From an uncultured delta proteobacterium (GTDB lineage: Bacteria; Myxococcota_A; Polyangia; Haliangiales; Haliangiaceae): 64,000 bases of DNA. The DNA lies in the NCBI GenBank assembly GCA_963743525.1, contig CAVUQH010000002.1, forward strand, positions 224,001-288,000, given 5' to 3'. The translations under genes were made by a program, and so were the position numbers. Within the stretch, counting starts at the first letter, position 1. The number at the start of each line of letters is the position of its first letter. Under the pieces are notes generated by a model. That model saw nothing but the letters and a program-made list of their open reading frames with translations, was not told the DNA's origin and did no database searches. Shown one piece after another: positions 7,795 to 39,809 of the stretch.

Positions 7795-8285
<491 letters not shown>

Positions 8286-8286
8286 C

Positions 8287-8340
8287 TCCTTCGACTCCGC
8301 CCGGGCTGCGCCCGGACTTCGCTCAGGATGAGCGGCCTGA
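8287..8340 (+). repeat. REP-like palindromic element upstream of the transposase
   Basis: TCCTTCGACTCCG-CCGGGC-TGC-GCCCGG-ACTTCGCTCAGGATGAGCGG with a perfect 6-bp inner hairpin; TCCTTCGACT.CGC recurs on the minus strand near 51645-51658. Confidence 0.5.
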
Positions 8341-8397
8341 AGGAAGGCGGGTGCCGTCATTGTCAGACCGCCGTGATAGAACTCTGCCAGAATCAAG

Positions 8398-9141
8398 ATG
8401 AGGAAACGGCGCAACAAACGCTCGGCTTCGGCGCAGCTCGACTTCGATGCCCATCGGCGGCGGCAGCAGCAACACGAGCACGGTGGCTATCGCGAAGGTG
8501 CCGGGCGCAAGAAGAAGCGGGGGAAACGGCGGATGCCGCATCTGCCCCGCCCCGCTCTGGCATCGCGGTTTCCGGTGCACGTGACGGTGCGGATTGGTGA
8601 GGATGTTCCGCGGCTGCGGAACTTCAAGCGGTGCAAGGTGCTGCGGGCGGCGTTGGTGCGCACGTGCAGCAAGCCGGGTTTTCGGATCTGTCAGTTCAGT
8701 ATTCAGCGCAATCACATCCACCTGGTGTGTGAGGCGAAGAACGGGGAGGCGCTGGCGCGGGGCGTCCAGGGGTTCGAGGTGAGTGCGGCGCGGCGCCTCA
8801 ATCGCCTCAGTGGTCGTCGGGGATCAGTGTTCGACGACCGGTATCACGCCGAGATCTTGCGCTCGCCCAATCAGGTGCGGAACGCGCTCTGCTACGTGCT
8901 CAACAACGCGCGCAAGCACGGGGAGGTGTTGCGCGGCTCGGTGCCGGATCTGTTTTCATCGGCCTGGCACTTCGATGGCTGGCAGGACGACGGGTGGCGC
9001 CGGGGCGTGGCGCCGCCGACGGGGCCGCCGTGTGTGGCGAACGCGCGCACGTGGTTGATGACCGACGGCTGGCAGAAGCGCGGGCTCATCGCGGTCGACG
9101 AGCACCCGGGCCCGGCGGCTCGCGCGATGGGTTGGGGCTAG
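8398..9141 (+). CDS. Stand-alone Y1 HUH transposase (RAYT / IS200 TnpA-like)
   Basis: PVHVTVR, HUH motif NHIHLVCE, FDDRYH, catalytic Tyr in YVLNNARKH, downstream DLFSSA; no tnpB nearby. Confidence 0.85.
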   Translation: MRKRRNKRSASAQLDFDAHRRRQQQHEHGGYREGAGRKKKRGKRRMPHLPRPALASRFPVHVTVRIGEDVPRLRNFKRCKVLRAALVRTCSKPGFRICQFSIQRNHIHLVCEAKNGEALARGVQGFEVSAARRLNRLSGRRGSVFDDRYHAEILRSPNQVRNALCYVLNNARKHGEVLRGSVPDLFSSAWHFDGWQDDGWRRGVAPPTGPPCVANARTWLMTDGWQKRGLIAVDEHPGPAARAMGWG

Positions 9142-26947: not shown

Positions 26948-28660
26948 GTGATCCCGTCGCTGGCGATGCGCGGCAAGCTGGTCCTGGCCAGCGGTGCCAC
27001 GTTCGTCGTCGTCGGGGCGCTGTACACCGCGCCGCCGCTGGTGGCCCTGGGCGGCGTGGTCGTCTTCGCGGTGCTCGCCGCCTACCTGTGGTTCTTCCCC
27101 ACGGCGATCTTGTTGCGGCGACGCAAGATCGAGCTGTCGTGGTGGGTGCCGCCGGGCGACCAGCCGGGCGGCGCGCTGTCGGTTAACCGGCCGTTCGAAT
27201 TGCACGTAGCGCTGCGCAACCACGGCGGCCGACCGCTGCGGGTGCTGTCGTGCGACATCCTCGGCACCGCAGCGCTGGAGCTGCCGCAGCACCTCGAGGC
27301 GCTGGTTCCCGCCGGGCGCCAGGTCGAGCTGGTCGGCGAGACCCGGGCCGCGTCGGCCGGCTACCAGGTGGTCCACGGCGCGGTGCTGATCTTCGGCGAC
27401 ATCCTGGGGCTGTTCGACGTCCGCGCCTACTTCCCCAACCCGATCGCGCTCAAGGTGTTCCCGCGGGCGACGGCGCTGTCGCGCTTTGCCAGCATGCGCC
27501 CGCGCGGCGGCGCGCTGCACGAGCGGGTCGGCCTGCACCAGGTGCGCCAGCGCGGCTTGCAGGGCGAGCTGCGCGAGCTGCGCGATCACTTCATGGGCGA
27601 TCCGTTCAAGCAGATCGCGTGGAAGGCGACCGCGCGGCGGCGCAAGCTGACCGTGCGCGAGATGGAGACCGAGATCGTGGTCACCCACCAGATCCTGGTC
27701 AACATCTCCGGCAGCATGCGCGGCGGTCGCCCGGGCCGGACCAAGCTCGACTACGCCATCGACACCGCCGCGGCGCTGGCGCGCAGCGCGCTGGAGGCCG
27801 GCGACCGGGTCGGCATGGTGACGTTCGACTCGCGCATCTACTCCGAGCTGCGCGCGGGCACCGGTCACCACCACTTTCTCAAGCTGGTCGACCGCCTGGT
27901 CGAGCTGCACAGCATCGTCAACGAGGATCTGACCGACCTGACCACCGGCGAGCTGGTCACCGCGGTGGCCAAATACCTGGCTCATCAGGAGGCGGTCGAC
28001 GTGCGGTTGCAGCGGGCGCCGCCGCTCGACAGTCCCAAGTGGGAGCGGATCCAGGCCGGGCCGAGCGGCGAGCTCTACGATCTGGGGGTCATGAACACGG
28101 TCGTCACCACGCTGCTCAAGTCGATGGGCCAGGCAGCGCAGCAGCGATCGCTGGCGCCGGCGTGGTGGTGGTCGCGGGTCAACGTGTCGGCCGACGCCGA
28201 TCCGCGCATGGCCAAGCTGCGTCTGTTCTGCCGCCTGCGCGGCATCGAGCTGCCCTACCGCCCGCGCCACGAGGTTGGCCGACGCGCCCGCGGCCTGGCT
28301 GCCGCCATCAGCCGGGTCACCACCGAGTCGCGGGCAGACGTCATCATGGTCATCTCCGACCTGGTCGGTGTCGCCGAGGCGCCGGAGCTTTCGATCAATC
28401 CGCTGGCCCGGGCCAAGCGCGGCGGTCAGCGAGTGGTGGTGGTGGCGCCGTTCGGCCCCGCGTTCGCCCCGCCGCCGCGGAGCGCCGAGGCGCAGAGCGT
28501 CGCCGCGGTGCTGGGCCGCGACGCGCGGGCGGTGCTGGACACGGCTAGCCGGGCGATCCTGCGGCACGGCATACCGGTCATCGAGACCGGGCCGCGGGAT
28601 GGGATCGGCAGTGTGCTGAGGCGGATCTCGCAGAGCCGGACGCTGCGCCAGGTCGCCTGA
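26948..28660 (+). CDS. DUF58 domain protein (MoxR partner)
   Basis: ELRELRDHFMGDPFKQIAWKATAR, NISGSM, GDRVGMVTF, VISDL. Confidence 0.9.
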   Translation: MIPSLAMRGKLVLASGATFVVVGALYTAPPLVALGGVVVFAVLAAYLWFFPTAILLRRRKIELSWWVPPGDQPGGALSVNRPFELHVALRNHGGRPLRVLSCDILGTAALELPQHLEALVPAGRQVELVGETRAASAGYQVVHGAVLIFGDILGLFDVRAYFPNPIALKVFPRATALSRFASMRPRGGALHERVGLHQVRQRGLQGELRELRDHFMGDPFKQIAWKATARRRKLTVREMETEIVVTHQILVNISGSMRGGRPGRTKLDYAIDTAAALARSALEAGDRVGMVTFDSRIYSELRAGTGHHHFLKLVDRLVELHSIVNEDLTDLTTGELVTAVAKYLAHQEAVDVRLQRAPPLDSPKWERIQAGPSGELYDLGVMNTVVTTLLKSMGQAAQQRSLAPAWWWSRVNVSADADPRMAKLRLFCRLRGIELPYRPRHEVGRRARGLAAAISRVTTESRADVIMVISDLVGVAEAPELSINPLARAKRGGQRVVVVAPFGPAFAPPPRSAEAQSVAAVLGRDARAVLDTASRAILRHGIPVIETGPRDGIGSVLRRISQSRTLRQVA

Positions 28661-28678
28661 GCTGGCGCGCCCCGCGGG

Positions 28679-29036
28679 CGCGTCCGGGTCCGCGTCCGGA
28701 TCCGCGTCCGGATCCGCGTCCGGGTCCGCGTCCGGATCCGCGTCCGGATCCGCGTCCGGATCCGCGTCCGGATCCGCGTCCGGATCCGTGTCCGGATCCG
28801 CGTCCGGATCCGCGTCCGGATCCGCGTCCGGATCCGCGTCCGGATCCGCGTCCGGATCCGCGTCCGGATCCGCGTCCGGATCCGTGTCCGGATCCGCGTC
28901 CGGATCCGCGTCCGGATCCGCGTCCGGATCCGTGTCCGGATCCGTGTCCGGATCCGCGTCCGGATCCGCGTCCGGATCCGCGTCCGGATCCGCGTCCGGA
29001 TCCGTGTCCGGATCCGTGTCCGGATCCGTGTCCGTG
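28679..29036. repeat. Tandem array of 12-mer CGTCCGGATCCG (CGG-NNN hexamers on the minus strand)
   Basis: 29 full units counted from 28681, with variants TGT and GGT; contains 27 GGATCC palindromes. Confidence 0.97.
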
Positions 29037-29080
29037 CTGCCTGTTTAGAGGAGTGGCTCGCGCTCGTGAGTCTCGATCGT

Positions 29081-29164
29081 CGCCCAGTGCTCGGCGGCGT
29101 CAAGAGTTCGCGCGCGCGGAGCGCGCGCCGCTTCGCGCTCTTGACCCCGCCTGCGCGCTGGGCG
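29081..29164 (+). promoter_or_regulatory. Long imperfect hairpin upstream of the four-helix-bundle gene
   Basis: CGCCCAGTGC/GCGCTGGGCG, GGCGG/CCGCC, GTCAAGAG/CTCTTGAC, apex GCGCGCGC-GGA-GCGCGCGC. Confidence 0.7.
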
Positions 29165-29200
29165 GGTGGGGATGCCTCACTTTCGCAAGGAGAGGATCGG

Positions 29201-29518
29201 ATGCTTCGTATTCAGGCTGTTTGCATCGAGTTGGTTCGTGACGTCAGGCGGCTGGCCGGGCGGATCGAGAAGTACGACAAGGACCAGGCCAGGCAACTCC
29301 GGCGATCGGCGACGTCAATCGTGCTGAACTTGGCGGAGGGCGAGGGCAATCGCGGCGGCACGCGCCGGACACGCTACGACAGCGCGCTCGGCTCCACGCG
29401 GGAGACGCTGGCGAACTTGCAGGTCGCCGAGGCCCTGGGCTACGTCGGGACACTCGACACCGACCTGCTGGATTGCTTCGATCGCGTGGCCGCCACGCTC
29501 TTCCGGCTCATCCGCTGA
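29201..29518 (+). CDS. Four-helix-bundle protein (23S rRNA intervening-sequence protein / Avd-like family), 105 aa
   Basis: SD AAGGAGAGG; signature QLRRSATSIVLNLAEG...ALGSTRET...AEALGY. Confidence 0.9.
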   Translation: MLRIQAVCIELVRDVRRLAGRIEKYDKDQARQLRRSATSIVLNLAEGEGNRGGTRRTRYDSALGSTRETLANLQVAEALGYVGTLDTDLLDCFDRVAATLFRLIR

Positions 29519-29562
29519 GCCACTCGACGGGCGGGCGAGCTCATCTCGCCCTCGCCCTCTCG

Positions 29563-30211
29563 CGGGCCCGGTCGCGGTCGCGGTCCCGGACGCGGACCCG
29601 GTCACGGTCGCGGTCGCGGACCCGGTCGCGGTCGCGGACCCGGTCACGGTCACGGTCGCGGACCCGGTCACGGTCGCGGACCCGGACTCGGACCGGTCGC
29701 GGTCGCGGACCCGGACCCGGTCCGGTCCGGACCCGGTCGCGGACCCGGTCCGGTCGCGGTCGCGGACCCGGTCGCGGACCCGGTCACGGTCGCGGATCCG
29801 GACGCGGATCCGGACCCGGATCCGGTCGCGGTCGCGGACCCGGTCCGGACCCGGACGCGGATCCGGACCCGGATCCGGACCCGGTCGCGGACCCGGTCGC
29901 GGTCGCGGACCCGGTCGCGGATCCGGACGCGGATCCGGACGCGGATCCGGACCCGGATCCGGTCGCGGTCGCGGATCCGGACCCGGTCGCGGATCCGGAC
30001 CCGGTCGCGGATCCGGACCCGGTCGCGGACCCGGTCGCGGTCGCGGTCGCGGATCCGGACGCGGATCCGGACGCGGATCCGGATCCGGATCCGGACGCGG
30101 ATCCGGACGCGGATCCGGATCCGGACCCGGTCGCGGATCCGGACCCGGTCGCGGATCCGGACCCGGATCCGGACCCGGTCGCGGACCCGTTCGCGGACCC
30201 GTTCGCGGACC
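29563..30211. repeat. Hexamer tandem array CGG+(TCG/ACC/TCA/ATC/ACG)
   Basis: ~108 units with a few single-base slips; ends at the smc stop codon. Confidence 0.97.
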
Positions 30212-34102
<3,891 letters not shown>

Positions 34103-39392: not shown

Positions 39393-39438
39393 CGGGGACC
39401 AGCCCCGCCCCCGCACCGCCCCGCCCCCCACGCTGCCC

Positions 39439-39801
39439 CGGACCCGGGCGCGAGCACGGACGCGGCCCCGGCCCCGGACCCGGACCCGGACCCGGACCCG
39501 GACCCGGTCGCGGACCCGGTCACGGTCGCGGACCCGGACCCGGACCCGGTCGCGGACCCGGACGCGGACCCGGACCCGGTCGCGGTCGCGGTCGCGGACC
39601 CGGTCGCGGACCCGGACCCGGACCCGGTCGCGGATCCGGACCCGGTCGCGGACCCGGACCCGGACCCGGACCCGGTCGCGGACCCGGTCGCGGACCCGGA
39701 CCCGGTCGCGGTCGCGGACCCGGTCGCGGTCGCGGACCCGGTCGCGGACCCGGACCCGGTCGCGGTCGCGGACCCGGTCACGCAGGCGCGGACCCGGTCG
39801 C
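39439..39801. repeat. Solo hexamer tandem array CGG+(ACC/TCG/TCA/ACG/ATC)
   Basis: ~60 units, same vocabulary as 29563-30211, between convergent genes. Confidence 0.97.
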
Positions 39802-39809
39802 GCGCGCGC

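Follow-up and report, generated by a model that had tools for sequence, protein, structure and literature searches.

Between the convergent core genes DUF58 and smc, in a genome of 8.55 Mb and 70% G+C, lies a small gene surrounded by repeats and hairpins. What kind of unit is this, and which of its parts belong together? A preliminary description, made from the 64,000-nt stretch of DNA analysed here (the window), took it to be a nested fold-back in which inverted hexamer arrays enclose a 9-bp inverted repeat, a leader hairpin with a strong Shine-Dalgarno (SD) sequence, a four-helix-bundle gene and a 3' hairpin. All of these features are present (Table 1), and profile matches to the neighbours confirm that the unit fills the gap between DUF58 on the plus strand and smc on the minus strand. 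We asked which of them recur in related copies.

Table 1. Positions in the window of the features in and beside the DUF58-smc gap
Feature	Position	Strand	Remarks
DUF58 gene	26948-28660	+	Left neighbour, core gene
Left hexamer array	28679-29034		Units GGATCC, GCGTCC, GTGTCC, GGGTCC; starts 18 nt past DUF58 stop
9-bp inverted repeat, left half	29051-29059	+	Private to DUF58-smc copy
Conserved leader of cassette	29055-29200	+	Shared by the 17 copies, a decayed copy and a remnant; has homologues across Myxococcota
Outer helix, 5' side	29066-29070	+	Pairs with 29176-29180; duplex downstream of predicted bubble
-10-like hexamer GACGAT	29076-29081	- (template)	Unpaired in fold
84-nt main hairpin	29081-29164		Covarying stems, branched tip
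-35-like hexamer TTGACG	29098-29103	-	16 nt from -10-like hexamer
Two mini-hairpins forming tip of 84-nt hairpin	29110-29128, 29129-29137		
Outer helix, 3' side	29176-29180	+	Putative mRNA start from folded minus strand
Shine-Dalgarno-like stretch	~29187-29195	+	Lies outside fold
Four-helix-bundle gene, 105 aa	29201-29518	+	PF05635 / TIGR02436; mosaic of two paralogue lineages
9-bp inverted repeat, right half	29517-29525	+	Private to DUF58-smc copy
3' hairpin core GGGCGAG / CTCGCCC	29533-29551	+	Non-array hairpin
Right hexamer array	29560-30212		Units GGACCC, GGTCGC, GGATCC, GGACGC; abuts smc stop
smc gene	30212-34096	-	Right neighbour, convergent with DUF58

The cassette and its copies

The product of the gene is a member of PF05635, a large family with solved structures for which we know of no function outside its distant relative Avd. 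It matches PF05635 at 44.3 bits (cut-off 33.8) and TIGR02436 at 46.6 bits (cut-off 24), and its predicted structure consists of four helices (pLDDT 96.7). The model has TM-scores of 0.86-0.89 to Xcc0516 (2GSC; 0.89) and BT_0352 (2RLD), and of 0.71-0.74 to Avd (4DWL, 8UBE), with which it shares 8-10% identity (E 0.4-0.6). R31, R34, R35, N43, E46, R58 and E68 are among the residues invariant across 80 aligned relatives, and relatives of the protein are present in records of Polyangiaceae, Nannocystaceae and Kofleriaceae. Xcc0516 is reported to form a homopentameric ring (PMC4990558).

We found 17 four-helix-bundle paralogues in the genome, 51-85% identical to the DUF58-smc copy. A further, distant PF05635 gene is the 18th, and there are also a decayed copy and a remnant of which only the leader is left. 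Every full-length match to the leader precedes a four-helix-bundle gene. The protein is under purifying selection: dN/dS across the paralogues has a median of 0.28 and a maximum of 0.52 (134 of 136 pairs). Two pairs of paralogues are 98-99% identical (C14:247921 / C3:304838 and C2:316628 / C22:279327). The leader of the DUF58-smc copy is 98-99% identical to two sister leaders, and its open reading frame differs from that of C2:316628 at 3 positions in the first 96 nt and at 52 in the last 219. The DUF58-smc copy is a mosaic of two paralogue lineages, and sequence has been exchanged between copies. Related genomes have from 0 to 13 matches each, with any match at all in 10 of 30.

The copies share a genomic setting. 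The downstream host gene is convergent in 13 of the 17 (p = 0.004 against 42%, with a crude gene caller), and in six copies its stop lies 34-37 nt past the stop of the cassette gene. The same caller provided the gene calls for dN/dS and for array polarity, and it missed known genes, including DUF58 itself in the scan of host context. A non-array hairpin of at least 6 bp follows the stop in 10 of 17 copies (13 of 17 if array-made stems are counted). A preference for TAG stops at the insertion site was not significant (9 of 13 against a background of 54%, p = 0.21). At two sites in a congener, G001 (L002 1175 and L076 1785), the inserted unit seems to take the place of the host gene's final codons and to provide a TAG stop in their stead. 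More distant four-helix-bundle families in kin (L006, L008, L010, L011, L016, L018) have long leader hairpins of other kinds, whose stems close immediately ahead of the SD, and L008, L018 and L024 lie in tail-to-tail gene pairs.

The 9-bp inverted repeat, which the preliminary description placed around leader and gene, exists at this locus only; the 17 others tested have 3-7 bp, so that conserved terminal inverted repeats are absent from the family. It is probably a chance occurrence, and we dismissed it as the end of an element.

An empty DUF58-smc site had been predicted, and one is present in congener G001, whose DUF58 and smc tail are 94% and 96% identical to those of our genome (G000): only 32 nt separate the two stops there, against 1,551 nt in G000. 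The gene is also missing from all 19 DUF58 loci of other genomes, in 8 of which smc is close by. Eight of the 17 cassette sites were checked in G001 and none holds an intact cassette: four have 15-79 nt and no trace of it, two have a REP doublet, and two have remnants. Because of the remnants, some differences between the two genomes are losses and not new insertions. Conversely, we looked in G000 at two of the sites where G001 has the cassette; the first is empty and the second has an unrelated broken gene. We saw no target-site duplication at nine pairs of filled and empty sites, in a comparison where the congener is too diverged for sharp ends or junctions. At G000:C12:642394-644188, a frameshifted gene, which we take to resemble a 5'-nucleotidase, stands where G001 carries an intact cassette.

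The site checks, the remnants and the mosaicism therefore show that copies have been gained, deleted internally and exchanged between congeners, and we consider it very likely that the unit is a dispersed cassette. Its layout would be an optional, variable hexamer array, a conserved leader of 150 nt, the four-helix-bundle gene and a short 3' hairpin, optionally followed by another array. No transposase belongs to it. Could these be old, mostly immobile paralogues instead, with a host function such as a response to single-stranded DNA in damage or DNA uptake, subject to gene conversion, so that the differences from G001 are losses and the arrays are slippage products in relaxed intergenic DNA? 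Remnants at two of the eight orthologous sites, mosaic copies, purifying selection and the lack of a transposase, of terminal repeats and of target duplication are what this account expects; the four traceless sites, the 19 DUF58 loci without the gene, a copy number of 0-17 among kin and the sites that G001 has of its own are not, and we regard it as improbable. The claim that the unit is undescribed stands as far as our literature search reached: the cassette is real, dispersed and polymorphic by site, its gene travels with a conserved leader beside arrays, and we found no published description (most subscription papers were outside the coverage of the search). Enclosure by inverted arms and by the 9-bp repeat did not stand as a rule of the family.

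Hexamer arrays around the cassette

At the DUF58-smc locus the left array is a 12-mer in 29.7 copies with 97% matches, and the right array is a 12-mer in 54.8 copies with 79% matches. The left array is indeed the reverse complement of words in the right one; as inverted arms the two are 83% complementary over 356 nt, and a DNA fold of positions 28661-30211 pairs 317-320 of the 356 left-array bases with the right array. No contig from the sequencing runs spans the locus, no run contains half of the stretch, and neither RNA runs nor the source reads turned up among them. One contig from run X5 (DUF58 ~93% identical) has array words straight after the DUF58 stop, in left-array polarity and for 49 letters only; these words are the reverse complement of the right array of the DUF58-smc copy.

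We examined the flanks of the paralogues, as the preliminary description had proposed. An autocorrelation test detected a tandem array beside every one of the 17, no farther than 330 nt on the upstream side or 120 nt on the downstream side (random controls, 5 and 4 of 400). The array is upstream only in 11 copies, downstream only in three, and on both sides in three. Related, inverted arrays are found at the DUF58-smc copy alone; 14 copies have one array, and two have two unrelated arrays. Thus the flanks bear out the association with arrays and a covarying leader, whereas inverted arrays and the 9-bp repeat fail to recur among these copies. Because one copy of 17 is inverted and the 9-bp repeat is private to it, the nested fold-back is not the anatomy of the family, and we dismissed inverted arms as a family rule.

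The arrays are not confined to the cassette. Among 102 hexamer-type arrays in the genome, 19 lie close to four-helix-bundle genes; a multicopy HNH family accounts for 22 and RAYT-like genes for 5, and 57 have none of the multicopy families nearby (one array is counted twice in this grouping). A CG junction recurs every six bases in 88 of the 102, and 23% of random array pairs (1206 of 5151) share words. The best matches to the right array of the DUF58-smc copy are gene-less arrays elsewhere in the genome (cosine 0.75-0.93), and five sister cassettes have a downstream array with the same words in the opposite polarity. Arrays of the right-array word class read in the same direction from the adjoining stop codon in only 10 of 14 scorable cases, judged by nearest gene end. 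If arrays have a fixed orientation relative to the stop of the convergent gene that each adjoins, then two convergent host genes, each polarising its own array, would give the inverted arms at DUF58-smc without further cause. The arrays are a genome-wide class that gathers behind the stops of convergent genes, and the inversion at DUF58-smc is most simply explained in this way.

Several other elements lie in or near such arrays. At positions 39437-39802 of the window, a gene-less array of right-array words stands between convergent genes after a terminator-like hairpin. The locus L031 (G000:C3:251287-252437) has a distant PF05635 gene (C3:251748) with a different short leader, between inverted arms of the rare words GTTGAC / GTCAAC, and a gene-less arm at C3:366161 has words similar to these. 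The multicopy HNH-motif family, at G000:C2:137541-139037 and 17 further loci, has conserved upstream and downstream hairpins of its own, with hexamer arrays at 12 of 18 loci, some of them within the open reading frame. Another element, presumably IS3-like, is located at the edge of or inside hexamer arrays at G000:C2:120474-121734, C8:780667 and C8:916932-918197, twice just upstream of cassette copies. A search of Rfam 15 gave 53 weak matches, all below the gathering score and all on arrays, with none on the leader.

In other genomes, 44 of the 64 loci with enough flank have an array (4 of 57 in a far-flank control). Eleven of these loci have two arrays, which are inverted in five (four genomes, one weak case), direct in five (one genome) and unrelated in one. 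Among 26 loci of kin, an array is present at 15 and a pair of arrays at five, the pair being inverted in three (two genomes) and unrelated in two. L095, a duplicate of a locus already included, was left out of the counts. With this genome included, inverted arms occur in seven genomes and direct arms in one (p = 0.07, with one weak case, L150). Because inverted arms recur in other genomes, the idea that they matter is weakened but not discarded.

In its strong form, this idea holds that the whole fold-back is mobile from array to array, that the protein binds the inverted arms or helps to extend them, and that one-armed copies are decayed or incomplete. It draws on the joint absence of both arrays and the gene in G001, on arms that pair over ~320 nt, on the words of the X5 contig, on the rare-word arms around the distant gene at C3:251748, on the seven genomes against one and on the CG-every-6-bp grammar common to most arrays. 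Against it, inverted arms are found in one copy of 17, and in the pairs that look youngest, at 98-99% identity, each member has a single array; the five sister copies have the opposite downstream polarity. More than half of the arrays are near no multicopy family, the HNH and RAYT-like genes (5 of 12 loci for the latter) have arrays too, and word sharing is common among random pairs. The genome has no reverse transcriptase, and the excess of inverted over direct arms is backed only by the p-value above. We therefore judge that a mobile whole fold-back is quite unlikely, and that inverted arms are occasional and not defining, which tempers the first reading of the locus.

Promoter geometry of the leader

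The conserved part of the cassette is its leader, and the main signal of the cassette, as we read it, is the promoter geometry of that leader. Searched for by nucleotide sequence, with no more than 7 candidates scored in each genome, the leader was recovered from 4 of the family's 121 genomes, so distant leaders were gathered through the protein. We examined 98 leaders. Anchoring on the stem, which made no use of the -10 box, was possible for 76 (66 distinct); the other 22, three of which lack sequence, were dropped, and five of the 22 show promoter geometry on a looser look.

On the minus (template) strand, in the arm far from the gene, the pattern TTGAC-16 nt-nAnnnT is present in 63 of the 66 distinct Myxococcota leaders, which, being related to one another and including 11 from this genome, are not independent trials. 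The mirror arm has boxes of this geometry in none of the 66, and other spacings give 0-1. In the DUF58-smc copy the boxes have 8 of 12 consensus matches; a consensus scan of the locus for promoters and terminators found nothing over threshold and missed them. In more distant paralogue families of relatives, which have long leader hairpins, we did not see the geometry by eye. In flat duplex DNA the minus-strand boxes face away from the gene.

The boxes are fitted into a conserved fold. An alignment of 20 leaders preserves 27 pairs in 96.9% of cells (slid controls, 36-47%), and eight of the 27 show two-sided changes, a number equalled in 0-1 of 500 shuffles. For the pairing and loop counts we left out L122 as mis-anchored, so that 65 leaders remain. 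The stems of the spacer are Watson-Crick in 60-65 of the 65, with 2-4 pair types per position. The -35 box is paired, with covariation, and the -10 box has a mean of 1.6 of its 6 bases paired. Beyond it, an outer helix of at least 5 bp is present in 43 of the 65 leaders, starting 5-8 nt past the -10 box in 31 of these 43, at a median of 31 nt before the start codon.

These features suggest how the leader may work. If the minus strand is single-stranded or extruded, it would fold so that the TTGAC -35 box and the spacer become duplex, the nAnnnT -10 box sits in a bubble that is already open, and pairing returns as a short helix at +1. A sigma-70-type RNA polymerase could then copy the minus strand from ~29176 through the SD, which would be exposed, and into the gene. 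Because the boxes face the gene only on the folded minus strand and point away from it in flat duplex, the protein would be made only while the locus is single-stranded. The leader is probably a fold-back promoter of single-stranded DNA, a reading that has good support in the sequence.

A different reading gives the two signals separate functions: a duplex promoter fires outward through the upstream array, making antisense RNA, and the hairpin acts as RNA, controlling translation or stability in a read-through mRNA. The boxes are correctly spaced in flat DNA, as this would need, and read-through could be supplied by co-directional upstream genes (detected at 7 of 17 copies). As RNA, the plus strand gives a good fold (z = -2.5), one pair of the outer helix varies between G-C and G-U in 6 of 20 leaders, and purine-rich C(AGGA)G tetraloops on the plus strand, of which there are 18, point against single-stranded DNA. 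However, pairing breaks off right at the -10 box and sets in again near +1, for which an RNA leader has no need, and the SD lies outside the fold. The loops and mismatches also favour the minus strand. Triloops of the form C(GNA)G have unusual stability in DNA; 53 of the 65 leaders have them on the minus strand, against 8 with plus-strand ones. No leader has a C(UUCG)G RNA tetraloop, the plus-strand loops being mostly UUC/UGC triloops, and the stem mismatches of the plus strand are pyrimidine-pyrimidine in 104 cases (65 at one invariant position) against 9 purine-purine. On these grounds we consider two separate functions unlikely.

Our preferred explanation for the locus as a whole, towards which we lean by a narrow degree, is a dispersed, transposase-free cassette with a fold-back promoter of single-stranded DNA that spreads via single-stranded intermediates. 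The strand-specific geometry would then predict when the protein is produced, namely when its DNA is single-stranded.

Movement and comparison with known systems

How such a cassette might move is less clear than how its gene might be switched on. We suggest, with less assurance, that it spreads through single-stranded intermediates using host functions and lands mostly behind the stop codons of convergent genes. Candidate functions are HUH transposases of RAYT-like type, which would work on REP-like hairpins next to the unit, or else recombination among copies and arrays. The genome has 12 Y1_Tnp matches, and five of these 12 RAYT-like loci have a hexamer array. RAYT is reported to cut single-stranded REP DNA (PMC3733652). 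In G000 the leader has a REP immediately ahead of it at 2 of 17 copies and at one remnant, and in G001 at three copies or remnants; 15 of 17 copies have none, and we saw no REP downstream. The REP family has 11 matches in G000 and 106 in G001, similar in pattern; this difference of about tenfold is the reverse of that in cassette copy number. The GAA loops of REP and leader are on opposite strands, a poor fit to one simple excised strand. Host HUH enzymes are the best candidate for movement, through a link that is partial, and movement of single-stranded DNA by such an enzyme is a tentative proposal, possible rather than probable.

Two observations concern these hairpins. In the window, a hexamer array, a REP-like hairpin and a RAYT-like (Y1_Tnp) gene (8398-9141) stand in a row at 7796-9141. 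By eye, the inner hairpins of REPs resemble the leader tip, including the tandem G-A variant of the G010 leaders.

We found no source of the single-strandedness that the promoter would need, a point against that reading. With 12 of 17 copies co-directional (p = 0.14), there is no bias towards the lagging-strand template, and we dismissed such a bias as the source of single-stranded DNA. Carriage by phage or plasmid was dismissed, with no relatives found on viral contigs or plasmids. An IS or MITE was dismissed for the absence of conserved terminal inverted repeats.

A bolder proposal, which we put forward as speculation and think unlikely to hold, is that the cassette is a new kind of minimal selfish element of Myxococcota. 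It would consist of a single, non-catalytic-looking gene that is expressed solely during single-stranded phases of its own DNA; the four-helix-bundle product would bind the leader tip or the arrays and bring in host enzymes that copy the unit and seed or extend arrays. If true, it would explain the orphan PF05635 family, the open reading frames of rRNA intervening sequences (as insertions) and dispersed short tandem arrays.

The protein family invites comparison with diversity-generating retroelements, whose Avd has the same four-helix-bundle fold. Unlike those elements, the cassette encodes a protein with 8-10% identity to Avd, and, as the preliminary description had noted, it comes without a reverse transcriptase: there is no RVT_1 match in the genome (97% complete), and we dismissed a DGR or other retroelement. 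In cyanobacteria, STRR arrays are dispersed short-unit tandem arrays in intergenic DNA. The cassette-linked arrays differ from these in being hexamers in a G-NNNN-C register, in Myxococcota, and in being tied to several multicopy gene families.

Open reading frames of 23S rRNA intervening sequences (S23p in Coxiella and Leptospira) encode the same protein family and fold, with the gene in a fold-back loop. In Coxiella, the S23p ORF of the intervening sequence is preceded by short heptamers in tandem, and that ORF is reported to be decaying and probably not expressed (PMC4990558). In a read-through transcript the two hexamer arrays of the DUF58-smc copy could pair as RNA, like the terminal stem of an intervening sequence, which RNase III cuts. 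By analogy, the heptamers may be a published hint of the same tie between gene and repeat. Unlike these sequences, the cassette is intergenic and outside rRNA (again as first noted, with no rRNA match within 28600-30300), has a strong SD and is under purifying selection. With this location, no rRNA match and no Rfam match above gathering, we dismissed an rRNA intervening sequence or a described RNA family.

REP and REPIN sequences with their RAYTs (PMC3733652) resemble the cassette in having hairpins with GNA loops on one strand and sites behind genes. REPs adjoin some cassette copies and fill two of the eight orthologous sites in G001. The cassette differs in carrying a gene and a promoter-like box, and most of its copies have no REP.

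A close likeness is to Frpo and ssi, from the leading regions of F and ColIb-P9, where single-stranded DNA is reported to fold into a template-strand stem-loop that rebuilds the -35 and -10 boxes directly before a gene (PMC9849209, PMC11541004). The cassette leader likewise has a template-strand stem-loop with boxes at the correct spacing before a gene (63 of 66 leaders, against none for the mirror arm), a likeness of boxes and stem. Unlike Frpo, it is chromosomal and multicopy, bound to one gene family and located beside core genes, outside conjugative elements and their leading regions; its -10 box appears to be held open in a mismatch bubble, and its tip is branched with GNA triloops. Most likely, the leader works like an Frpo promoter outside any conjugative leading region. 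If so, promoters of single-stranded DNA are not confined to conjugative plasmids but work at many chromosomal sites, and the tie between the PF05635 family and short tandem arrays becomes open to testing.
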